From NCBI GenBank assembly GCA_027468165.1, contig GCA_027468165.1_3951.1: 64,000 bases of DNA, one strand, 5' to 3'. The stretch comes from a phage. The notes under the pieces were generated by a model that was given only the letters and a program-made list of their open reading frames with translations, was not told the DNA's origin and did no database searches. Made by a program: the position numbers and the translations under genes. Within the stretch, counting starts at the first letter, position 1. The number at the start of each line of letters is the position of its first letter. Positions 12,325 through 21,295 of this stretch are shown piece after piece.

Positions 12325-13740
12325 ATGAGCGAGTTATTTAAACATGCGCACCTTCATACAGGTCGAACTGAAAATGGTGCTGTAAACCATACTTCATCAA
12401 TGTCTGCTCTGGTAGACTTCTACAAAGCCGCTGGCTCAAGCCGTAGCAATGTAGAAATCTTACCAGACCTGTTCTACAAAGCTTTGCGTGAGGATGTTGA
12501 TGTTGCAGTTCGTATTTTACTGCATATGCGAGATGTACGAGAAGGTATGGGCGAGCGTAAAGCTTTCCGAACTGTTTTACTTCAAGCAATTGAAGATAAG
12601 GTTTTAGAGCCTACACAGGTTCTTCGCATCATGGATAAGATTGCAGAACTTGGTCGTTTTGATGACTTCAAAATCTTCGTAGGTACTCGTTTTGAGACAG
12701 ATTCCTTCAAACATTTAGAAGCAGCATTACTAGACCCTGCAACAGCAGGTTTAGCAGCTAAGTGGTTGCCACGAGTAAAACCACGCCACAAACAGTTTGT
12801 AAAACGTTTCTGTAAGTTTGCAAACTTGAGTGAGAAGGAGTATCGCACACTGTTATCTGCACTGTCTGATACGGTTGAGCAAAAAATCTCTGCTAATGAT
12901 TTTGGTAAGATTGACTACAGCAAGATTCCTTCACTCGCTGCTGCACGTTACCAAAAGCTCTTTAACCGTAAAGATGGGGAACGTTACAAAGCTTATATCG
13001 AGTCACTCTCAAAAGGTGAGGCTAAGATTAACGCTGGTGCTGTTTACCCATACGATGTGATTAAATCTATTAAGTATGGTAATGCAGATGTTGCTAATGA
13101 GCAGTGGAAAGCACTTCCAAACTGGATGGCAGAAGGTGAAAACATCTTGTGTATGACTGATGTCTCAAGCTCAATGTCTTGGGTGAATCTTGGTTCAATC
13201 ACTGCCCTTGATATTGGTGTATCCCTTGCCTTGTATGTAGCAGAACGCAATACAGGTTGCTTTAAAGATGAGTTAATGGTCTATTCAACAAACCCTCATT
13301 TCATTGAACTGAGTGGTGATTTACGAAACCGTCATCGTCAGGTGATGCGACATGTTGAATATGGTTCAACTAACTTACAAGCAGCTTTTGACCGCATTCT
13401 TGAGGTAGGTAAGCGAAACAAATTGACTCAGAAAGATATGCCAAGTAAGCTTATCATCTTCTCTGATATGGAGTTTAATCAGGTTGATGGTGCAAATGGT
13501 CGTACAAACTTTGAAGCAATTCAGAGTAAGTACAAAAAAGCTGGATATGAGATGCCACAACTAGTATTCTGGTACTTAGCAAACCGTAATGGTACTTGCG
13601 AAGTGTCTGTTAAGGATAATGGTGTAGCAATGGTATCAGGGTTCTCTCCAGCCACTTTAAAAGCTCTGCTTGGTGGTGAGAAGTTTGACCCAATCAGCGT
13701 AATGCTCAAAGCAGTAATGATTGACCGTTACATCTGGTAA
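12325..13740 (+). CDS. von Willebrand factor A (vWA) domain protein with MIDAS motif; N-terminal ~270 aa unassigned (possibly TROVE-like)
   Basis: DxSxS motif (CMTDVSSSMS) followed by a vWA-like beta strand (KLIIFSDMEF); strong SD; sits immediately upstream of the tRNA array. Confidence 0.65.
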   Translation: MSELFKHAHLHTGRTENGAVNHTSSMSALVDFYKAAGSSRSNVEILPDLFYKALREDVDVAVRILLHMRDVREGMGERKAFRTVLLQAIEDKVLEPTQVLRIMDKIAELGRFDDFKIFVGTRFETDSFKHLEAALLDPATAGLAAKWLPRVKPRHKQFVKRFCKFANLSEKEYRTLLSALSDTVEQKISANDFGKIDYSKIPSLAAARYQKLFNRKDGERYKAYIESLSKGEAKINAGAVYPYDVIKSIKYGNADVANEQWKALPNWMAEGENILCMTDVSSSMSWVNLGSITALDIGVSLALYVAERNTGCFKDELMVYSTNPHFIELSGDLRNRHRQVMRHVEYGSTNLQAAFDRILEVGKRNKLTQKDMPSKLIIFSDMEFNQVDGANGRTNFEAIQSKYKKAGYEMPQLVFWYLANRNGTCEVSVKDNGVAMVSGFSPATLKALLGGEKFDPISVMLKAVMIDRYIW

Positions 13741-13752
13741 AAAGTTTTAAAA

Positions 13753-13787
13753 AGGGTATTGACAATGTGTTTGATACCCTTTAATAT
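13753..13787 (+). promoter_or_regulatory. Putative promoter: A-tract, TTGACA 13759-13764, 17 bp, TAATAT 13782-13787
   Basis: Near-consensus sigma70 elements; likely drives the tRNA array. Confidence 0.55.
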
Positions 13788-13904: not shown

Positions 13905-13981
13905 CTCTGTTTAGCTCAGCTTGGTAGAGCGTTCCGTTTGGGGCGGTAAGGCCGGAGGTTCAAGTCCTCCAACAGAGACCA
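13905..13981 (+). tRNA. tRNA-Pro (anticodon UGG)
   Basis: Manual fold: acceptor CTCTGTT/AACAGAG, D-arm GCTCAGCTTGGTAGAGC, anticodon loop TTTGGGG, T-arm GGAGG-TTCAAGT-CCTCC, CCA encoded. Confidence 0.7.
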
Positions 13982-13988
13982 AATTAAT

Positions 13989-14066
13989 GTTCCAGTAGAC
14001 AAAATGGTATAGTCACCACTCTTTCAAAGTGGATATTTGAGGGTTCAAATCCCTTCTGGAACGCCA
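13989..14066 (+). tRNA. tRNA-Glu (anticodon UUC)
   Basis: Acceptor GTTCCAG/CTGGAAC, anticodon stem-loop CCACT-CTTTCAA-AGTGG, T-loop TTCAAAT, CCA encoded. Confidence 0.75.
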
Positions 14067-14073
14067 GTTTTGA

Positions 14074-14146
14074 CAGAAGACCAATTGCAGCAAACTTAAT
14101 CTTATTCATCTGACACGAAATCGGACAAAGAAGAGATTTGGTCTGG
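14074..14146 (+). repeat. tRNA-spacer element E1 (5' CAGAAGACC ... 3' GGTCTGG)
   Basis: Conserved termini able to pair (AGACC/GGTCT); starts 8 nt after tRNA-Glu and ends 12 nt before the next tRNA. Confidence 0.5.
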
Positions 14147-14157
14147 TCATTAAGAAT

Positions 14158-14234
14158 TGCGGGTATAGAGAAAGGGCGTCTCACATGTCTCATTAGCATG
14201 GTATCGGCAGGTTCGACTCCTGCACCCGCCTCCA
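14158..14234 (+). tRNA. tRNA-Met (anticodon CAU), initiator-like
   Basis: Anticodon stem-loop CATGT-CTCATTA-GCATG, T-arm GCAGG-TTCGACT-CCTGC, acceptor with unpaired 1:72 position; D-arm atypical. Confidence 0.55.
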
Positions 14235-14240
14235 ATTTTG

Positions 14241-14300
14241 CAGAAGACCGTATGCAGCAATAAACTACTTTTTGCGGATAAAAGAAAAAACACGGTCTGG
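14241..14300 (+). repeat. tRNA-spacer element E2 (CAGAAGACC ... GGTCTGG)
   Basis: Same terminal motifs and same placement relative to flanking tRNAs as E1. Confidence 0.5.
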
Positions 14301-14311
14301 CAATGTATTAA

Positions 14312-14385
14312 GGTTAGGAAGCACATAAGGTATGTGCGGTCGCCTGTTAAGCGAATGGCACAGGGTTCGAATCCCTGACTAACCG
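14312..14385 (+). tRNA. tRNA-Asn (anticodon GUU)
   Basis: Acceptor GGTTAGG/ACTAACC, D-stem GCAC/GTGC, anticodon loop CTGTTAA, T-arm CAGGG-TTCGAAT-CCCTG. Confidence 0.65.
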
Positions 14386-14396
14386 CAAATTTAAAT

Positions 14397-14484
14397 GTGT
14401 CGTTATCCCGTAGATGGTAGCGGTGGGGACTGTAAATCCCTTGTCATTGAGACTCGGTAGGTTCGACTCCTACACGGCACACCA
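14397..14484 (+). tRNA. tRNA-Tyr (anticodon GUA), long variable arm
   Basis: Acceptor GTGTCGT/ACGGCAC, anticodon loop CTGTAAA, ~14-nt variable arm, T-arm GTAGG-TTCGACT-CCTAC, CCA encoded. Confidence 0.7.
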
Positions 14485-14545
14485 ATTTTGAGAGGGCTAT
14501 TTAGCCCCTCCCTTAAAGGGTTCTTACGAGTATCCTTTAAAGGAG

Positions 14546-14619
14546 CAGAAGACCAAATACAGCAAGTTACTTAAAATTTCAAGCTAATTTAATTTTGAAA
14601 AATTTAAAACTTGGTCTGG
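14546..14619 (+). repeat. tRNA-spacer element E3 (CAGAAGACC ... GGTCTGG)
   Basis: Same terminal motifs. Confidence 0.5.
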
Positions 14620-14632
14620 CTCAACAAATTTA

Positions 14633-14763
14633 CAGAAGACCGTTTACAGCAAAACTTAAACAATCTATTTCTCGGTAAAGAAAAGGCGAAGGTTCGATTC
14701 CTTCACTCGGCAGATGTCGAGTTGGTGTAATGGTAGCACTTAAGATGATAAACAACGGTCTGG
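14633..14763 (+). repeat. tRNA-spacer element E4 (CAGAAGACC ... GGTCTGG) enclosing a tRNA-like fragment
   Basis: Same terminal motifs; interior contains T-arm and acceptor-like hairpins. Confidence 0.5.
14688..14739 (+). other. tRNA-like fragment in permuted order (T-arm + 3' acceptor strand, then complementary 5' acceptor strand + D-arm); no anticodon arm
   Basis: GAAGG-TTCGATT-CCTTC then ACTCGGC, 4-nt gap, then GTCGAGT + TGGTGTAATGGTAGCAC; the two acceptor strands are complementary. Confidence 0.3.
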
Positions 14764-14866
14764 TAATTATCTTTGCAGTAGCTTATGTGGCTAATTATGT
14801 CGTCCCATGAGTGCCGATGAATTTCCTTAGCATGATTCTAGATTAGCTTAATAGGAAATGACTCTA

Positions 14867-14887
14867 CAGACCCTTTAGCAAGGTCTG
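14867..14887 (+). repeat. Minimal spacer element E5 (CAGACC-CTTTAGCAA-GGTCTG)
   Basis: Shares the AGACC/GGTCT closing stem and GCAA motif with E1-E4. Confidence 0.4.
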
Positions 14888-14914
14888 CGTAGGTTACTGC
14901 AAAGATAATTTAAT

Positions 14915-14990
14915 GGAAGTGTAGCAGAATGGTGATGCGGCAGACTTTTAATCTGACAGGCGACGGGTTCGAATCCCTCCACTTCTACCA
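14915..14990 (+). tRNA. tRNA-Lys (anticodon UUU)
   Basis: Acceptor GGAAGTG/CACTTCT, anticodon loop CTTTTAA, T-loop TTCGAAT, CCA encoded; T-stem weak. Confidence 0.6.
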
Positions 14991-14994
14991 ATAT

Positions 14995-15071
14995 GGTTCA
15001 GTCGCAGATAAGGTAATGCAAGGGTCTCATAAGCCCTATGAATGTGGGTTCGATTCCCATCTGAACCTCCA
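14995..15071 (+). tRNA. tRNA with anticodon CAU (elongator Met or Ile-lysidine)
   Basis: Acceptor GGTTCAG/CTGAACC, anticodon stem-loop AGGGT-CTCATAA-GCCCT, T-loop TTCGATT, CCA encoded. Confidence 0.65.
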
Positions 15072-15072
15072 A

Positions 15073-15148
15073 GCTGGTATAGTTAAGAAGGTTATAACAC
15101 TCCCCTGATAAGGGAACATCGGTGGTTCGATTCCACCTACCAGTACCA
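15073..15148 (+). tRNA. tRNA-Ile (anticodon GAU)
   Basis: Acceptor GCTGGTA/TACCAGT, anticodon loop CTGATAA, T-arm GGTGG-TTCGATT-CCACC, CCA encoded. Confidence 0.7.
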
Positions 15149-15157
15149 ATTTCAATA

Positions 15158-15192
15158 AAGTTGTTGACATTGATATGTGACCACTTTATAGT
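15158..15192 (+). promoter_or_regulatory. Putative internal promoter: A-tract, TTGACA 15164-15169, 17 bp, TATAGT 15187-15192
   Basis: Near-consensus sigma70 elements. Confidence 0.5.
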
Positions 15193-15484
15193 AACTAAAA
15201 TACTTCATAATATGTATAATTCAAACACCAATACATGAGCGTTAGACGTAACACAATGTGGGGAAATTTGTTGTACATATTCTGAATAGTTTTCGTTGCG
15301 TAGCGTCTATTTTGCAAATTTAAAATAAATGCAAACGACAATGTTTTTCTGGCAGTAGCTTGATAGGCTAAACACCAGTGAGGTCTTCCAATCCCTCATC
15401 AAAGAATTTGGCGTACTCGCCCACGGTATGATTAATAAGGTGGGCATCTTTAAGGGTTTTTTAAGAGAGTCTTTAAAGATTAAT

Positions 15485-15561
15485 GCACCCTTAGTTCAAC
15501 TGGACAGAACAAATGACTTCTAATCATTAGGTTACAGGTTCGAATCCTGTAGGGTGTGCCA
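15485..15561 (+). tRNA. tRNA-Arg (anticodon UCU)
   Basis: Acceptor GCACCCT/AGGGTGT, D-stem GTTC/GAAC, anticodon stem-loop AATGA-CTTCTAA-TCATT, T-arm ACAGG-TTCGAAT-CCTGT, CCA encoded. Confidence 0.75.
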
Positions 15562-15576
15562 GTTTAAGAGGTATAT

Positions 15577-15918
15577 ATGAAGAACGGCTCTATAGGAGAA
15601 ATTGCAACTCAACTTGAGTTTATGAAGATGGGATATGAAATCTACTCACCAGCAACTGACAATGCTAGGTATGATTTTATAGCTCACAAAGACGGTAAAC
15701 TTTATAAAGTTGAAGTTAAATCCACCTCAAGGAAAGTTAGAGATGTATGGAAAGTGCAACTAAAGAGAGTTCATTCAAATAGAAGTTCAAACAGAATAGC
15801 TAACTTTGATAACACGTTAGTTGATTTCTTATCAGTTTATATTGAACCTCTTGAAAAGGTTATAATCCTTAAAGCTAAAGACGTTACTTCAAAAACTGAG
15901 TTAAGCTTAAGGGTTTAG
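15577..15918 (+). CDS. Small PD-(D/E)xK nuclease-like protein (113 aa) embedded in the tRNA array
   Basis: Motif D(FIA)...KVEVKS resembling the PD...(D/E)xK catalytic core; strong SD. Confidence 0.5.
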   Translation: MKNGSIGEIATQLEFMKMGYEIYSPATDNARYDFIAHKDGKLYKVEVKSTSRKVRDVWKVQLKRVHSNRSSNRIANFDNTLVDFLSVYIEPLEKVIILKAKDVTSKTELSLRV

Positions 15919-16027
15919 ATTATCTTCTGTAAGGAGGTGGTCTGTATCTCATGTTTCCAGAACATGTAAATAATCTGAGAAGGGGCTTTACAGTGTTGCG
16001 AAAATACGGTAAGCTTCGAATTATAGT

Positions 16028-16110
16028 ATGGGACGATGTTAAGACTCTAAGGCATGAGCAACGGCTTCCAACACCGTTTCAAAGGGGTTCAACTCCTCCG
16101 TCCCATGCCA
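16028..16110 (+). tRNA. Atypical tRNA-like gene, possibly tRNA-Trp (anticodon CCA) with enlarged D-region
   Basis: Perfect acceptor ATGGGAC/GTCCCAT, anticodon stem-loop ACGGC-TTCCAAC-ACCGT, T-loop TTCAACT, CCA encoded; D-region ~7 nt too long. Confidence 0.4.
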
Positions 16111-16122
16111 AGTCTTATTAGG

Positions 16123-16210
16123 GGTAGGTAGCGGCTAATGGTAGCCAAACTGTCTTGAAAACAGTTGCCACTGTAGAGATACGGTGAGGGTTCGACTCCT
16201 TTACTTACCG
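16123..16210 (+). tRNA. tRNA-Ser (anticodon UGA), long variable arm
   Basis: Anticodon stem-loop ACTGT-CTTGAAA-ACAGT, ~20-nt variable arm, T-loop TTCGACT. Confidence 0.6.
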
Positions 16211-16465
16211 CCTAATAAGATTTAAAGCCAAGCTTCATTCGGATGTTGCTTTGGTATCCCTCGTGTATTGTCGTACACAAGTAAAGCACCTAGTAGGTGT
16301 CACGGAGAAGAGATAATATCAAGCTCTCCAAAGGTTCTAGTCACCGGATTAAACAAGACTATGCAAAGGCCTATTTAGGTCTTTTTAGAGGGCTTCTAAG
16401 GTTATTACAGCTTGTTGTGGAACCTTGTTGCTTAGGTTCTTAGAAGTTCTCTAAAAAGATTTAAT

Positions 16466-16543
16466 GGGAGATTGACGGTAATTGGTAAACCTATCTCGCT
16501 TAGAACGAGATGTTTGAGGGTTCGAATCCCTTGTCTCCTACCA
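16466..16543 (+). tRNA. tRNA with anticodon UAG (Leu), short variable region
   Basis: Acceptor GGGAGAT/GTCTCCT, anticodon stem-loop TCTCG-CTTAGAA-CGAGA, 5-nt variable region, T-arm GAGGG-TTCGAAT-CCCTT, A73, CCA encoded. Confidence 0.6.
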
Positions 16544-16550
16544 AATTAAT

Positions 16551-16626
16551 GCAGGTGTAGCAAAATGGTTATGCGGCTGACTCTTAATCAGTAAGACGAT
16601 GGGTTCAATTCCCTCCACCTGTACCA
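16551..16626 (+). tRNA. tRNA-Lys (anticodon CUU)
   Basis: Acceptor GCAGGTG/CACCTGT, anticodon stem-loop GCTGA-CTCTTAA-TCAGT, T-loop TTCAATT, CCA encoded. Confidence 0.65.
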
Positions 16627-16632
16627 GACATT

Positions 16633-16708
16633 GGGGATGTAGTTTACATGGTTAAAACATAAGTTTTGCAAACTTAAGTACAGGGTTCAATTCCCTGCTT
16701 CTCCACCA
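16633..16708 (+). tRNA. tRNA-Ala (anticodon UGC)
   Basis: G3:U70 wobble pair in acceptor stem, D-stem GTTT/AAAC, anticodon stem-loop TAAGT-TTTGCAA-ACTTA, T-arm CAGGG-TTCAATT-CCCTG, CCA encoded. Confidence 0.75.
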
Positions 16709-16714
16709 ATTAGT

Positions 16715-16789
16715 GCATCCATAGTTTAAACGGGAAAATTACAGTCTTCCAAACTGAGGTTGAGGGTTCGATTCCCTCTGGATGCTCCA
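16715..16789 (+). tRNA. tRNA-Gly (anticodon UCC)
   Basis: Acceptor GCATCCA/TGGATGC, anticodon loop CTTCCAA, T-arm GAGGG-TTCGATT-CCCTC, CCA encoded. Confidence 0.7.
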
Positions 16790-16796
16790 AATTAAT

Positions 16797-16873
16797 GCTG
16801 CTTTCGTATAATTGGCTATTACACATCCCTTGTAAGGATGGAAATGCAGGTTCGAGTCCTGTGAGCAGCACCA
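16797..16873 (+). tRNA. tRNA-Thr (anticodon UGU)
   Basis: Acceptor GCTGCTT/GAGCAGC, anticodon stem-loop CATCC-CTTGTAA-GGATG, T-arm GCAGG-TTCGAGT-CCTGT, CCA encoded. Confidence 0.75.
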
Positions 16874-16968
16874 ATTCAGAGGTCAAGTGAAAGACCGCTG
16901 GTGTCAACTGAAGACCGTAACAAATTCCACGGAGTTGAGTTAGCGGCACAACTTCAGACCTCTTTCAT

Positions 16969-17043
16969 ACTCGCTTAGTTTATATGGTAAAACACCACCC
17001 TTACAAGATGAAGAAAAAGGTTCAAGTCCTTTAGTGAGTACCA
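16969..17043 (+). tRNA. tRNA-Val (anticodon UAC)
   Basis: Acceptor ACTCGCT/AGTGAGT, D-stem GTTT/AAAC, anticodon loop CTTACAA, T-arm AAAGG-TTCAAGT-CCTTT, CCA encoded; anticodon stem weak. Confidence 0.6.
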
Positions 17044-17044
17044 T

Positions 17045-17122
17045 GTTCCAGTATCCCAATTGGTAGAGGATGCAAGCTCAAACCTTGTACTAGTGACGGT
17101 TCGAATCCGTCTTGGAACACCA
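17045..17122 (+). tRNA. tRNA with anticodon CAA (Leu), short variable region
   Basis: Acceptor GTTCCAG/TTGGAAC, anticodon stem-loop GCAAG-CTCAAAC-CTTGT, 6-nt variable region, T-arm GACGG-TTCGAAT-CCGTC, A73, CCA encoded. Confidence 0.6.
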
Positions 17123-17236
17123 ACTTTAGGAGAGCACTGTGAGTGATAAGTCAATAGCAAAAAAGTTTAGAGCGTCATACCTAAACAGACGTAAAAACAG
17201 AGATTGTGAAAAACTGTATGGTGTTCTTGTAGGTAA

Positions 17237-17312
17237 GCAGGATTAGTTCAAATGGATAGAGCAACAGTCTACGAAGCTGTTAATAGGGGTTCGAATCCCT
17301 TATCCTGCGCCA
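17237..17312 (+). tRNA. tRNA-Arg (anticodon ACG)
   Basis: Perfect acceptor GCAGGAT/ATCCTGC, anticodon stem-loop ACAGT-CTACGAA-GCTGT, T-loop TTCGAAT, CCA encoded. Confidence 0.75.
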
Positions 17313-17331
17313 ATTTAAAGAGGCTATTTAG

Positions 17332-17889
17332 ATGAGATATTTGAAGTATGCTTCATGGATTTTCTTAGCTTTGTTAGAGCCATTTGCAGCAATCTTAGCA
17401 GTTATCTTAGCACCTTTCGTAGTTCCATTTTACAGTGAGAAGAAAGGACACTTACCTTTCGGCTTCAGATGGATGGAAACATACGACAACCCAATTGATG
17501 GTGATAAAGGTCATGTCGAACGGTGGGCTAAGATTAGAAAGATTGGTAAGCTCGGTGTCTACATGCAGAGAGTTGGATGGCTCTGGAGAAACAAAGCTTA
17601 TAACTTCTCTTACCATGTGTTAGGAAGAGATGTAAAAGATGTTACTAAGTGGAAAGGTAATATCAATGTAAGTTCTAACCCTGAAGATAATCAGACAGGT
17701 TATCTCCTAATGTGGAACAGTAATGCTTGGGGGTTATTCGCTTTTATCCCATCAATTAAAGTCTTTGGTAAACAATTCTACTGGAGAATTTATGTTGGGT
17801 GGAAACTTAAAAGTGTTGTCCCAGAAGAAAGAGCATTCTCAAGGGAAAGAGTTATGTTGGCATTCTTTATTCATCCACTGAGAAAGTAA
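17332..17889 (+). CDS. Membrane protein with hydrophobic N-terminus (185 aa) embedded in the tRNA array
   Basis: ORF track; N-terminal segment WIFLALLEPFAAILAVILAPFVVPF; ATG 20 nt after tRNA-Arg. Confidence 0.5.
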   Translation: MRYLKYASWIFLALLEPFAAILAVILAPFVVPFYSEKKGHLPFGFRWMETYDNPIDGDKGHVERWAKIRKIGKLGVYMQRVGWLWRNKAYNFSYHVLGRDVKDVTKWKGNINVSSNPEDNQTGYLLMWNSNAWGLFAFIPSIKVFGKQFYWRIYVGWKLKSVVPEERAFSRERVMLAFFIHPLRK

Positions 17890-17897
17890 AGATTTAA

Positions 17898-17973
17898 AGG
17901 GGATTAGTTTACAAGGTTAAAACCTCGGTCTTTGAAATCGAAGAAGTTGGTTCAATTCCAACATCCCCCGCCA
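17898..17973 (+). tRNA. tRNA-Gln (anticodon UUG)
   Basis: D-stem GTTT/AAAC, anticodon stem-loop TCGGT-CTTTGAA-ATCGA, T-arm GTTGG-TTCAATT-CCAAC, CCA encoded; position 1:72 unpaired. Confidence 0.65.
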
Positions 17974-17975
17974 AT

Positions 17976-18054
17976 GCTCCATTACTCCAATTGGCAGAGA
18001 GGCCAGACTTAAAATCTGTGTTATGTATCGGTTCGAATCCGATATGGAGTACCA
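17976..18054 (+). tRNA. tRNA with anticodon UAA (Leu), short variable region
   Basis: Acceptor GCTCCAT/ATGGAGT, anticodon loop CTTAAAA, 7-nt variable region, T-arm ATCGG-TTCGAAT-CCGAT, A73, CCA encoded. Confidence 0.6.
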
Positions 18055-18059
18055 AATTT

Positions 18060-18135
18060 AGCGGTATAGCATAACTGGCAATGCAACAGTCTCTGAAGCT
18101 GTCTTATTAAGGTTCAAATCCTTATGCCGCTGCCA
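18060..18135 (+). tRNA. tRNA-Gln (anticodon CUG)
   Basis: Acceptor AGCGGTA/TGCCGCT, D-stem GCAT/ATGC, anticodon stem-loop ACAGT-CTCTGAA-GCTGT, T-arm TAAGG-TTCAAAT-CCTTA, CCA encoded. Confidence 0.7.
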
Positions 18136-18166
18136 CTTCTAAGGGTTCTTACGAGAGTCCTTAAAT

Positions 18167-18242
18167 GTGGCCTTATCATAAATGGTAATGACCCATGCTG
18201 TGAACATGGTCTATACGGGTTCAAATCCCGTAGGTCACCCCA
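18167..18242 (+). tRNA. tRNA-His (anticodon GUG)
   Basis: Acceptor GTGGCCT/AGGTCAC, D-stem TCAT/ATGA, anticodon stem-loop CCATG-CTGTGAA-CATGG, T-arm ACGGG-TTCAAAT-CCCGT, C73, CCA encoded. Confidence 0.75.
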
Positions 18243-18247
18243 ATTTA

Positions 18248-18324
18248 TAGTCCAAGTAGCTTATATGGTTAAAGCGCGTGTCTGAAAAACATGAGAAGAG
18301 GGTTCAAATCCCACTGGACTACCA
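18248..18324 (+). tRNA. tRNA-Phe (anticodon GAA); ends uncertain
   Basis: D-stem GCTT/AAGC, anticodon stem-loop CGTGT-CTGAAAA-ACATG, T-loop TTCAAAT; acceptor pairing admits two registers. Confidence 0.55.
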
Positions 18325-18340
18325 ATTTCAAAGGTGCTTA

Positions 18341-19075
18341 ATGAAAGAGATGACAGAACAAGGTAAGGAGATTTTTAATCTCTTAAAAACTGGTAGAGGG
18401 TTTTCTAATCCCCTTATTACTGGTGCAGCAGTTCTCGGTGGAACCGTAGCTGCCTCTACATCACTTGTAAGCTCTATTAGCTCTGTAACAGACCCTACAA
18501 TAAAGGATAAACTTGTTGCGGCTGGACTTACAACAGTTCTGCTTAACAGCTTTACAACGAGTCTGACAAGCACTACATCAACCACTAAGACACTGACAGA
18601 TTACGGTCAAAAGTCCATTGATGAGTTTTCATCACGTATGCAGGTAGCAAAAGGATATTCCAATGTTATGGGTGCAGCAGGAGAACAAGTCGGTTGTACA
18701 CCATTTAGTGGTATTATGGGTGTTGCTACAGAGTACGGTCAAAAAGCTATTGACACAATTAACAGTACACTAGATGGTGTTAATGATGTATTAAGTGACT
18801 TACAAGATGCTATTGATAAAGGTCTTGATACTGTTTCTGATTTAGCTAATCAGGCTGTTAGTAAGATTAATGAAGGTATTTCGAAGATTACAGCTTATGC
18901 AAATGAAGTTGTGCAGATGATTGAAGAAGAAGCTGCCCTTATTGCAGAGTACCTTAAAACGAATATCAATGGGTTCTTAGCAGGTATCTTACCAGACTGG
19001 TTTGATGATGCTTGTAAAACTGGTGTGATTGACACTATTGCAACACCAGAAATGAAGAGCGCATTACAGAAATAA
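18341..19075 (+). CDS. Hypothetical Ser/Thr-rich protein (245 aa from the ATG at 18341)
   Basis: ORF-track frame trimmed to the first ATG downstream of tRNA-Phe (MKEMTEQ...). Confidence 0.5.
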   Translation: MKEMTEQGKEIFNLLKTGRGFSNPLITGAAVLGGTVAASTSLVSSISSVTDPTIKDKLVAAGLTTVLLNSFTTSLTSTTSTTKTLTDYGQKSIDEFSSRMQVAKGYSNVMGAAGEQVGCTPFSGIMGVATEYGQKAIDTINSTLDGVNDVLSDLQDAIDKGLDTVSDLANQAVSKINEGISKITAYANEVVQMIEEEAALIAEYLKTNINGFLAGILPDWFDDACKTGVIDTIATPEMKSALQK

Positions 19076-19076
19076 T

Positions 19077-19169
19077 GGAAGATTAACCCTAAAAGGTAAG
19101 GGAGCAGTTTGCTAAACTGCCAGTAGCTGAGAAATCGGTGTACCAGTTCAAGTCTGGTATCTTCCTCCA
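19077..19169 (+). tRNA. tRNA-Ser (anticodon GCU), long variable arm
   Basis: Acceptor GGAAGAT/ATCTTCC, anticodon stem-loop GCAGT-TTGCTAA-ACTGC, ~21-nt variable arm, T-arm ACCAG-TTCAAGT-CTGGT, CCA encoded. Confidence 0.6.
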
Positions 19170-19173
19170 ATTT

Positions 19174-19249
19174 GAATCCGTGACAGAAATGGCTATGTGC
19201 CTGTCTGCAAAACAGGTTTATAAGGGTTCGAGTCCCTTCGGATTCTCCA
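19174..19249 (+). tRNA. tRNA-Cys (anticodon GCA)
   Basis: Perfect acceptor GAATCCG/CGGATTC, anticodon stem-loop CCTGT-CTGCAAA-ACAGG, T-arm AAGGG-TTCGAGT-CCCTT, U73, CCA encoded. Confidence 0.7.
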
Positions 19250-19411: not shown

Positions 19412-19436
19412 GACGGTCTCTGTACCGTCTTTTTTA
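19412..19436 (+). terminator. Intrinsic terminator (GACGGT-CTCTGT-ACCGTC followed by TTTTTT)
   Basis: Perfect 6-bp stem plus T-run. Confidence 0.7.
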
Positions 19437-19672: not shown

Positions 19673-19693
19673 TTCTATTTGCGGAGGTGCTTA

Positions 19694-21295
19694 ATGGACT
19701 TAAATGCTGTTAAGCAGAAGCGAGTGGAAGATGTTAGGAAAGTCCTAGCTGGAGAGTTGGGGCTTTCTGATGAAGTAAAAGAAATTATCAAATCATTCGG
19801 TAAAGACCCCTCTAAATTCCTTCCAACTCAAATTCTGACTTTATTAAGATACACACCAGACCAAGTTAGACTTATCTTCAAATTGATGACTGATAAGAAC
19901 TATGTAGCCCCTCAGCCGGGTTCTCAAGAGGTGTTTTTAAATACTAATGCTGACTTGGTTTTATATGGTGGTGCTGCTGGTGCTGGTAAAACTGCTGCAT
20001 TGTTAATGGACTCTTTAAGGTTTATTGAAGACCCTAACTATAATGCTGTATATTTCCGTCGAAATACAACACAGTTACAAGGTGGTTTATGGCCTGCTGC
20101 AAAGAAACTATTTGGTAAGTTTGGTGGGGTTCCTCACGAGCAGAAGATGACTATCACATTCCCTTCTGGGGCAACTATCAAGTTCACCTACCTAGAACTT
20201 GAAAAGCACGCTGAAGGTCATCAGGGTATTGAATACTCGGCTATTTACTTTGACGAAGGTACACACTTCTCTGCTTCACAGATTTCATACCTACAGACTC
20301 GTCTACGTTCTGGGGCTGAAGGTGATTCATACATGAAGATTTCTATGAACCCAGACAGAGACCATTTTATTTATGATTGGGTAGAACCCTTCTTAGATGA
20401 AGAAGGTTACCCAGACCCTGAGAAGTGCGGTCGTATTCGTTGGTATGTTATGAATGATGGTGTGATGGTTTCTGATTGGGAGAGAGACAAGATTCTTGAA
20501 ATGTTCCCTCTTGAGATTCCTCAGACATACACCTTCATCTCTGGTACGATTGATGATAACCCAATTCTTGACTTCTTAGAGCCTAAATATCGTGGTAAGT
20601 TGGAAAACAACACACCTGTAAACGTTGCAAGACTTCGTTTCGGTAACTGGAAGGCTCGTGCAGAAGGTTCAAACTATTGGCAAAGACAATGGTGTGAGAT
20701 TGTTGATTCACTCCCAGAAGATGTATTTGATGTCAGAGCATGGGACTTAGCAGCGACTTTACCATCTGAGATTAACCCTAACCCAGACTGGACAGCGGGT
20801 GTTAAGATGGGTAAATCTAAAAAAGACGGTTGCTATTATATCATTGATGTAGTAAGATTTAGAGATAGACCCTCTGGAGTCGAAACACAAATTAATTTGA
20901 CTGCTGAAAGTGACGGTAAGCGAACTGGTATTTTTATCCCTCAAGACCCAGGCGCTGCTGGTAAATCCTATGCAACATCCCTCATCAGGAAACTTGCCGA
21001 GAAAGGTTATCGCGCAAGAGCTAAACCAACAAATAAAGATAAAGTTACCCGCTTTGCGGGATTTTCTGCTGCTTCTGAAGCTGGACTTGTAAAAGTCTTG
21101 AGAGGTAGTTGGAACGAAGCTTATTTCCAAGAACTTGAAGGTTTTTGTGGTGATGGCAAAACTAAAGATGACCAAGTGGATGCTACCAGTGATGCTTTCA
21201 ACAGTCTTAACGAAGTTAAATTATTCAAGCCACCATCAATGGGTGCTCATACAGACTTAGTGAGAGGAAACCCATATGAGGGGCTTAGACGTTGA
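19694..21295 (+). CDS. Terminase large subunit
   Basis: Walker A (VLYGGAAGAGKT), size, position upstream of portal; start trimmed to ATG 19694. Confidence 0.8.
   Translation: MDLNAVKQKRVEDVRKVLAGELGLSDEVKEIIKSFGKDPSKFLPTQILTLLRYTPDQVRLIFKLMTDKNYVAPQPGSQEVFLNTNADLVLYGGAAGAGKTAALLMDSLRFIEDPNYNAVYFRRNTTQLQGGLWPAAKKLFGKFGGVPHEQKMTITFPSGATIKFTYLELEKHAEGHQGIEYSAIYFDEGTHFSASQISYLQTRLRSGAEGDSYMKISMNPDRDHFIYDWVEPFLDEEGYPDPEKCGRIRWYVMNDGVMVSDWERDKILEMFPLEIPQTYTFISGTIDDNPILDFLEPKYRGKLENNTPVNVARLRFGNWKARAEGSNYWQRQWCEIVDSLPEDVFDVRAWDLAATLPSEINPNPDWTAGVKMGKSKKDGCYYIIDVVRFRDRPSGVETQINLTAESDGKRTGIFIPQDPGAAGKSYATSLIRKLAEKGYRARAKPTNKDKVTRFAGFSAASEAGLVKVLRGSWNEAYFQELEGFCGDGKTKDDQVDATSDAFNSLNEVKLFKPPSMGAHTDLVRGNPYEGLRR

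Follow-up and report, generated by a model that had tools for sequence, protein, structure and literature searches.

Three leucine tRNA genes with a short variable region

The 64,000-nucleotide (nt) stretch of phage DNA analysed here (contig GCA_027468165.1_3951.1 of GenBank assembly GCA_027468165.1, hereafter the window) contains an array of transfer RNA (tRNA) genes in which the three leucine tRNAs carry a short, class I variable region. ARAGORN called tRNA-Leu(tag), tRNA-Leu(caa) and tRNA-Leu(taa) at 16466-16543, 17045-17122 and 17976-18054, all on the plus strand, in exact agreement with the positions and the anticodons UAG, CAA and UAA proposed by a sequence-only reading of this DNA. All three also matched the Rfam tRNA model RF00005 from end to end, at 44.5 (UAG), 46.1 (CAA) and 47.5 bits (UAA) against a gathering score of 29; model positions 1-71 were all matched, with insertions of 1-4 bases in the variable regions. 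The class I assignment of Leu(UAG) is further based on a segment parse and a minimum-energy cloverleaf, and those of Leu(CAA) and Leu(UAA) on the segment parse and the Rfam alignment.

With their encoded CCA ends the UAG, CAA and UAA genes measure 78, 78 and 79 nt, and without them 75, 75 and 76 nt. Assuming a 5-base-pair (bp) anticodon stem, their variable regions read UGUUU (5 nt), ACUAGU (6 nt) and GUUAUGU (7 nt), and none of them forms a helix; the lengths of 75-76 nt and variable regions of 5-7 nt given by the sequence-only reading were thus confirmed by the ARAGORN structures and the segment parse. ARAGORN's own counts for the variable region are 4, 5 and 7-8 nt, because it draws a longer anticodon stem in two of the three tRNAs, and the variable region of Leu(CAA) shrinks to 5 nt if U26-A44 is taken as a pair. 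Set beside the helix-free variable region of 4-5 nt that defines class I, the three tRNAs belong to this class with 5 (UAG), 5-6 (CAA) and 7 nt (UAA), depending on how the stem is drawn. The long arm of class II, absent from all three, is the single textbook feature that they lack.

The same array provides long-armed comparators, all on the plus strand: tRNA-Tyr(GUA) at 14397-14484 (88 nt, 15-nt variable region with a stem), tRNA-Ser(UGA) at 16123-16212 (90 nt, 20-nt variable arm) and tRNA-Ser(GCU) at 19077-19169 (93 nt, 21-nt variable arm). The long arms previously ascribed to these three class II tRNAs are therefore real, with total lengths of 88-93 nt and stem-bearing variable regions of 15-21 nt. 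The short-armed pattern, seen in 3/3 Leu tRNAs against 0/3 Ser and Tyr tRNAs in the window and recurring in each relative examined, is not a product of chance.

Otherwise the three genes are conventionally built. Each has a 7-bp acceptor stem followed by A73 (as the sequence-only reading had it) and an encoded CCA, and the anticodons, all of the leucine type NAG or YAA, lie within 7-nt loops that carry U33. Leu(CAA) and Leu(UAA) have a 3-bp D stem and an 11-nt D loop (CAAUUGGUAGA and CAAUUGGCAGA, respectively). Leu(UAG) and Leu(UAA) begin with a G1-U72 pair, which we also observed in 12/17 distinct class I Leu tRNAs of named phages and in 53/131 viral class I Leu tRNAs, and among the Escherichia coli genes in leuZ only. 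In Leu(UAG) positions 8-25 span an atypical 20 nt, with one extra base in or adjoining the D arm, and the register of the D stem is ambiguous: it can be drawn as A10-U25, a C11-C24 mismatch and G12-C23, or as a shifted helix of 3 bp that leaves a 3-nt connector. The same irregular D arm is found in phage SUSP1, and a similar one in Acinetobacter phage Rocket.

Leucine identity and probable charging by the host synthetase

We compared the three tRNAs with the host-type genes leuZ (UAA), leuX (CAA), leuW (UAG) and leuQPV (CAG) of E. coli K-12 and with the tRNA cluster of phage T4, all processed by the same program. The E. coli genes and T4 tRNA-Leu(UAA) share with the window's tRNAs A73, U8, A14, A15-U48, the 7-bp acceptor stem and the anticodons, together with a D stem of 3 bp, a D loop of 11 nt that follows xAAyyGGyAxA and a T loop of the form UUCRAxU. 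They differ in total length (85-87 nt) and in their variable region of 13-15 nt, a stem-loop in all but leuX, where the window's tRNAs have 5-7 unpaired nucleotides. The E. coli-type identity elements A73, U8-A14, A15-U48, G18G19, A20a, U54, U55, C56 and A58 are present in all three; position 9, after U8, is a purine, all three T loops read UUCGAAU, and A15 is matched by a U as the last base of every variable region, the 15-48 pairing being predicted from sequence. The D arms of Leu(CAA) and Leu(UAA) are of the leucine type, with 13:22 unpaired, a loop xAAUUGGyAxA and G18G19 placed four bases after position 13, and their positions 8-25 span 19 nt, as in leuZ, leuW, leuX, leuQPV and T4 tRNA-Leu; Leu(UAG) has A14, A15, G18G19 and A20a but the one extra base. 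Judged by these features, the three appear to be bacterial-type leucine tRNAs that have lost only the variable stem-loop and keep the rest of the E. coli leucine set.

One further difference from the host lies in the anticodon loop, which is CUUAGAA with A37 in the phage Leu(UAG) (16499-16505) and UUUAGGU with G37 in leuW. In the host tRNA, m1G37 protects against shifts of reading frame; its phage counterpart lacks a G37 that could bear this modification. CUUAGAA was the commonest Leu(UAG) loop in both the short-armed (36) and the long-armed (19) viral tRNAs that we collected (loci L014-L211), so that this loop is a phage trait separate from the loss of the arm. Differences in the Leu(UAG) anticodon loop are also given in a study of Shigella phage Sf14 (PMC12482277).

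Leucyl-tRNA synthetase (LeuRS) of E. coli needs A73, A15-U48, G18G19, A20a and the tertiary pairs that join D loop and T loop (PMC9976931). The sequence and folding of the long arm are uncorrelated with leucylation, and variants without the arm are still charged by the E. coli enzyme (PMC9976931; PMC6614811). For the Sf14 homologues of the three genes, tRNAscan-SE isotype models put Leu first in 3/3 cases, with 67.4, 49.1 and 60.2 bits (PMC12482277). Because the identity set is complete and the arm is published as dispensable, host LeuRS would be expected to charge these tRNAs. We consider it probable (roughly 80%) that the three are working leucine tRNAs, charged, as we infer, by the host LeuRS and serving genes rich in UUA, UUG and CUA. 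They would be transcribed together with the other genes of the array and then cut to size by enzymes of the host, with CCA already encoded; host LeuRS would then attach leucine, and the products would decode UUA and UUG (UAA), UUG (CAA) and CUA plus other CUN codons (UAG). Synthesis of tRNAs within an array and their use in translation are known from T4 and T5. The parts of this scheme that we infer are that the tRNAs are expressed, processed and charged by LeuRS, and also why they lost the arm. The function of the three genes is itself ordinary, and the wider interest of the short form does not alter it.

Codon usage provides the demand for such tRNAs. The window has a guanine-cytosine content of 39%, and leucine codons in its 54 long open reading frames (ORFs) are divided among TTA (27.6%), CTT (26.7%), CTG (15.1%), TTG (13.1%), CTA (10.4%) and CTC (7.0%). 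In E. coli about half of all leucine codons are CTG, and the UAA, CAA and UAG isoacceptors are minor species. Given this skew, the three phage tRNAs cover leucine codons that the phage over-uses relative to E. coli.

Several observations weigh against this interpretation. Within the window, the D arm of Leu(UAG) is irregular; the Rfam scores of the three tRNAs are among the lowest of the array, with only Ser(UGA) lower at 33.2 bits, and Phe (45.0 bits) and Ser(GCU) (46.2 bits) score in the same range; and the minimum-energy fold is a cloverleaf for Leu(UAG) only, with z-scores from -1.4 to -2.1. Weak z-scores are typical of AU-rich unmodified tRNAs, and since the folding energies are weak we used covariation instead as structural evidence (below). 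On the enzyme side, E. coli LeuRS did not charge the type I tRNA-Leu(CAA) of Streptomyces coelicolor, the one bacterial case tested (PMC6614811), and in a crystal structure its C-terminal domain touches arm positions 47f-47i, with 47n listed as a recognition feature (PMC6614811); given the contacts at 47f-47i, some loss of affinity for LeuRS is possible. The S. coelicolor tRNA-Leu(CAA) has the loop ACAGC with C48 rather than U48, and its own LeuRS ignores A73 (PMC6614811). Two of the E. coli determinants present in the phage tRNAs are thus missing from it, and its failure to be charged stands as a caution.

Alternatively, the three tRNAs might carry leucine anticodons and accept another amino acid or an ambiguous set, so that UUA, UUG and CUA would be recoded or mistranslated. 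Their class I shape is that of non-leucine tRNAs, and when the Leu(UAG) homologue of Sf14 is scored, the Ile2 (65.7) and Lys (63.4) models come close to Leu (67.4) (PMC12482277). We nevertheless regard mischarging as highly improbable: the E. coli leucine identity set is complete, including A73 and A15-U48, and Leu is the top isotype model for each of the three Sf14 homologues (PMC12482277). The codons themselves tell the same story. In the terminase, portal, protease and capsid genes, TTA, TTG and CTA align with leucine in 50-71% of cases against Erwinia phage phiEa21-4 and in 38-52% against Acinetobacter phage Rocket, which is the rate found for CTT and CTG, and their partner codons include all six leucine codons, so that they interchange with codons read by host tRNAs. 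Host tRNAs would presumably also have to read these same codons as leucine before the phage tRNAs arise. Recoding of UUA, UUG and CUA was accordingly rejected, as these late-gene codons align with leucine just as CTT and CTG do.

Known short-armed leucine tRNAs place the phage genes in context. The S. coelicolor type I tRNA-Leu(CAA) likewise has a 5-nt variable loop and coexists with long-armed tRNA-Leu and a single LeuRS (PMC6614811), yet it has C48, is recognised independently of A73 and relies on a LeuRS with a special leucine-specific domain, whereas the phage tRNAs have A73 and A15-U48. Judged on the tRNA side, therefore, the U48 and A73 of the phage tRNAs set them apart from the Streptomyces type, defined by C48, A73-independent recognition and a dedicated LeuRS domain, and unlike Streptomyces type I tRNA-Leu they must work with an E. 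coli-type LeuRS. Animal mitochondrial tRNA-Leu is class I in shape too, with A73 and A14 as main identity elements (PMC9976931), but its structure is relaxed and it is served by a dedicated mitochondrial LeuRS, while the elbow of the phage tRNAs is still canonical (G18G19, U55, C56) and they would depend on the host cytoplasmic enzyme. A further parallel is provided by E. coli tRNA-Leu variants that were engineered or obtained by SELEX, in which the arm was removed and A73 and the D/T-loop contacts were kept (Larkin 2002; Asahara 1998; both summarised in PMC9976931); according to that summary, engineered arm-less variants were leucylated and edited by E. coli LeuRS. These are laboratory constructs, some of them described there as also lacking the anticodon arm, whereas the phage genes are natural, complete and conserved, with working anticodon arms. 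They would be a match in vivo for what was found in vitro, namely that the arm is ignored by E. coli LeuRS. Streptomyces, the sole bacterial exception that we found in the literature, needs a specialised LeuRS, and the phage genes must use the ordinary enterobacterial one.

Synthetase families were also sought within the window. Of its 15 ORFs of at least 300 amino acids (aa), 13 fell into other families, 2 had no match and none hit an aminoacyl-tRNA synthetase family; a phage-encoded LeuRS in the window was dropped as a candidate on this count of 0/15.

Conservation among phages and probable recurrent loss of the arm

The array shares 94-96% identity with those of Escherichia and Salmonella phages of the genus Felixounavirus. 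It matched 313 phage records, 202 of which span 80% or more of the query, with Felix O1 among them, and the majority of the annotated matching records give three tRNA-Leu genes in the array; the window is a Felixounavirus, that is, a Felix O1-type phage. Comparison of tRNA sets showed that short tRNA-Leu genes beside long-armed Ser and Tyr genes recur in the relatives examined. All four Ounavirinae genera sampled have them (Felixounavirus, Suspvirus with SUSP1, Mooglevirus with Moogle, and Kolesnikvirus), the short tRNA-Leu of Kolesnikvirus phiEa21-4 and Hafnia phage SPARTY having the anticodons CAA, AAG and UAA. Short forms are also found in the T5-like Tequintavirus NBSal003, an Avunavirus, Aeromonas phage AhSzw-1 and Acinetobacter phage Rocket. 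In these relatives the short tRNA-Leu measure 77-79 nt with CCA, and the neighbouring Ser and Tyr tRNAs are long-armed.

To assess the structure we aligned 18 class I Leu tRNAs from 8 phages over 20 cloverleaf pairs, with 500 shuffles and slid 3' partners as controls. A standard pair is formed in 96.5% of the alignment cells, and 18 of the 20 pairs have changed on both sides. In none of the 500 shuffles did the pairing or the covariation score come up to that observed, and when the 3' partners were slid by 1-3 columns, 34-52% of cells paired. Leu(UAG) of SUSP1 illustrates the process: its acceptor, D and T arms equal those of the window, and its anticodon stem is compensated (CCAUC/GUUGG versus UCUCG/CGAGA). 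Because paired columns covary across relatives, the short tRNA-Leu genes are under selection for tRNA structure and are not decaying copies.

This result bears on the possibility that the three are pseudogenes, decaying or non-functional tRNA genes that lost their arm. The low Rfam scores, the minimum-energy folds of two of the three that depart from the cloverleaf, and a tRNA remnant elsewhere in the array (14685-14713) would all suit decay. However, the stems are intact and the conserved tertiary positions and encoded CCA are kept in all three, the genes are conserved with compensatory changes across Felixounavirus, Suspvirus, Mooglevirus and Kolesnikvirus, and 131 distinct viral sequences share their architecture (below), which makes pseudogenes scarcely credible. 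ARAGORN, for its part, returned no differing anticodon and no long arm, outcomes that, together with a pseudogene classification, the sequence-only reading had named as fatal to its claim; conservation and covariation argue against the last.

The sequence-only reading had also taken bacterial and known phage tRNA-Leu to be class II. This premise holds for E. coli K-12 (85-87 nt) and for the model phages T4, with a tRNA-Leu of 87 nt, and T5, whose single Leu(UAG) of 85 nt has a 13-nt variable region; it fails for phages in general and for S. coelicolor. That T4 and T5 have class II tRNA-Leu may be the reason why the short form escaped comment. According to its GenBank record, an anticodon-changed version of the T5 Leu(UAG) acts as an amber suppressor. 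The slot beside tRNA-Ala in Tequintavirus holds this 85-nt gene in T5 (L332 9625-9709, minus strand) and a 77-nt Leu(UAG) in NBSal003 (L001 8003-8079, plus strand). With the same slot occupied by different arms, short and long forms evidently replace each other in nature. The two Leu(UAG) genes in this slot look unrelated.

Leu(UAG) was compared further at 16466-16543 of the window, L013 3375-3452, L005 7994-8071, L001 8003-8079 and L003 3920-3996. The window's gene is about 76-85% identical to the class I Leu(UAG) of T5-like phages and far less like Moogle's Leu(UAG) in the same slot, which suggests, from these alignments, that the gene may have been replaced between phage lineages. Pairwise tRNA identities are too noisy for tracing origins, and this contrast between T5-like and Moogle Leu(UAG) is the only clear result that they gave.

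How widespread the short form is was estimated with a length-neutral pattern (AATTGG, a gap, a YAR anticodon loop, 15-34 bases and GTTCRA), each match being checked by ARAGORN. This census covers one D-loop motif, YAR anticodons and the first matches that each scan returned, namely the first 80 stretches listed from IMG/VR viral contigs and the first 120 stretches from GTDB bacterial and archaeal genomes. The viral contigs yielded 36 class I Leu, 36 class II Leu and 23 matches without a tRNA call, and the genomes 6 class I Leu, 93 class II Leu and 23 matches without a call. Among the matches listed, class I thus makes up 36/72 of viral and 6/99 of genomic tRNA-Leu (Fisher p = 3e-11), which suggests that short tRNA-Leu are common in phage tRNA arrays and rare in cells. 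The expectation that class I leucine isoacceptors would be unusual therefore stands for cells and for T4 and T5, and fails for phage arrays, where half of the confirmed viral tRNA-Leu (36/72 of the matches listed) are short-armed. The 36 viral class I tRNAs comprise 35 distinct sequences, which form 32 clusters at an identity of about 90%, and viral loci with class I matches only are rich in tRNAs (median of 12 tRNAs per locus). The six cellular class I matches (L219, L241, L274, L326, L249 and L269) come from Gordonia, Herbiconiux, Actinomycetales, Planctomycetota and Ahniellaceae assemblies; those from Gordonia, Herbiconiux and Actinomycetales are in line with the Streptomyces report.

Across all loci fetched we obtained 131 distinct viral class I Leu tRNAs, with A73 in 130 of them, U48 in 128, a 19-nt D region in 106 and a variable region of exactly 5 bases in 104. 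In viral loci with class I Leu the long arm is kept by 77/78 Ser and 32/34 Tyr tRNAs. Once the variable region was removed, the nearest neighbour of a viral class I Leu tRNA was class I in 107 of the 131 cases and class II in the other 24. In the pair L047/L103 the acceptor, anticodon and T stems are the same and the cores 88% identical, the two tRNAs differing essentially by the arm. Because some class I tRNAs are nearest to class II and such pairs differ in little else, repeated loss of the tRNA-Leu arm is suggested by these sequences. Three IMG/VR pairs of this kind (L047/L103, L016/L101 and L074/L200) have identical or near-identical stems and 87-88% core identity, with a long arm in one member and 5 bases in the other; they look like snapshots of arm deletion.

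The simplest reading of this loss is relaxed constraint, since LeuRS needs no arm. Seryl-tRNA synthetase (SerRS) and bacterial tyrosyl-tRNA synthetase (TyrRS) use the variable arm; an arm-independent LeuRS beside an arm-dependent SerRS and TyrRS fits a loss confined to Leu, with the Ser and Tyr arms kept. If SerRS does need the arm, a leucine tRNA without one should also escape it.

A different reason for the loss would be counter-defence: short phage tRNA-Leu might escape a host tRNase or toxin that reads the class II arm, a proposal compatible with leucine acceptance. The enrichment of the short form in viruses (36/72 versus 6/99 of the matches listed, Fisher p = 3e-11) and its apparently recurrent loss (the L047/L103 pair, and 24/131 class I tRNAs nearest to class II) would agree with it. 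Phage tRNAs are reported to evade tRNA-cleaving defences (PMC10264068, PMC11464382, PMC11555353), human SLFN11 and SLFN14 are reported to cleave type II tRNAs, and Schlafen nucleases function in bacterial anti-phage defence (PMC13056530). Yet no bacterial system is known to select class II tRNAs or tRNA-Leu through the arm, and the single bacterial Schlafen that has been characterised cuts the anticodon arm of class I tRNAs (Lys, Met, Ala, Val, Phe, Ile) (PMC13056530). The Ser and Tyr tRNAs of the same phages, moreover, keep the arm and would remain open to attack by such a nuclease, T4 and T5 get by with a long-armed tRNA-Leu, and relaxed constraint on an arm that LeuRS can dispense with accounts for the same data. 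We consider counter-defence unlikely. Bacterial Schlafens as the class II-specific nuclease found no support, since the characterised enzyme cuts class I tRNAs (PMC13056530).

Stated more broadly, arm loss could be a recurrent, virus-specific adaptation in which a host factor or immune nuclease reads the arm, so that phage tRNA-Leu would become invisible to it and yet remain charged by LeuRS, with cells retaining the arm for some purpose besides charging. To our minds this is a doubtful proposition. Were it true, short tRNA-Leu would point to a host system, yet to be discovered, that acts on class II tRNAs, and would offer a natural means of asking why the long arm of tRNA-Leu exists in the first place. 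As natural variants the phage genes make it testable why cells keep the tRNA-Leu arm, and short tRNA-Leu could help to recognise phage-derived tRNA arrays.

Earlier descriptions and the surrounding array

A 2023 review describes tRNA-Leu as long-armed everywhere but in animal mitochondria (PMC9976931), and type I tRNA-Leu is documented in S. coelicolor (PMC6614811). The Sf14 study analysed homologous tRNAs and never mentions the variable arm (PMC12482277). Our literature search, to which older subscription literature was closed, found no description of short-armed or class I phage tRNA-Leu. What is already known, then, is that many GenBank records of Felix O1-type phages have these genes annotated as tRNA-Leu and that class I tRNA-Leu exist in animal mitochondria and Streptomyces; what appears to be new is the generalisation that phage tRNA-Leu are often class I, for which we found no published statement. 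A tRNA specialist would be mildly surprised by it. Some GenBank records label the short tRNA-Leu genes tRNA-OTHER or call only two of the three, which calls for caution with their annotation.

The whole array, as called by ARAGORN and Rfam, runs from 13905 to 19249 and comprises 25 tRNA genes including the three for leucine, all on the plus strand. It lies directly upstream of the late module, with terminase (19679-21295), portal, protease and capsid. Spacers are often of 1-10 nt, for example 1 nt from Val to Leu(CAA) and 2 nt from Gln to Leu(UAA), and a few small ORFs are scattered among the tRNA genes. CCA is encoded by 23/25 of the array's tRNAs; it is incomplete in tRNA-Asn at 14312-14386 (G73 then CAA) and in tRNA-Ser(UGA) at 16123-16212 (G73, CC, U).

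Immediately upstream of the array, at 12325-13740 on the plus strand, lies a gene for a 471-aa protein with DUF2828 and DUF7788 domains, and in Moogle and SUSP1 its counterpart, annotated as an RNA-binding protein, occupies this same place. A conserved neighbour with this annotation would favour a non-translational role for the three leucine tRNAs, whether as decoys that engage a defence protein of the host that binds tRNA or as tRNA-like RNAs with a regulatory task, and phage tRNAs are reported to be able to neutralise defence systems (PMC11464382). Their anticodons, however, match codons over-used by the phage, and the full aminoacylation identity set and CCA are conserved, which a pure decoy would not need; we give this role next to no weight. 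Translation with leucine remains our preferred account.

Other features of the array concern its expression and turnover. A promoter scan of the array gave 14 promoter-like sites against 14.8 in shuffles, that is, no excess; promoter-like sites at 13759, 13849 and 15164 and a terminator-like hairpin at 19412-19429 are suggestive only. An ORF for a PD-(D/E)XK endonuclease lies inside the array at 15577-15918 on the plus strand, and HNH endonuclease genes are found elsewhere in the arrays of relatives (L013 2626-3030) and of T5 (L332, hegA-hegF). Such endonuclease ORFs fit mobile endonucleases driving the turnover of tRNA genes. Moogle and other relatives carry a tRNA-Asp right after Tyr, and the window has no tRNA-Asp. 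The 430-bp gap at 14485-14914 holds an apparent tRNA 3' half (14685-14713), with a T arm GAAGG-UUCGAUU-CCUUC followed by an acceptor-like strand.

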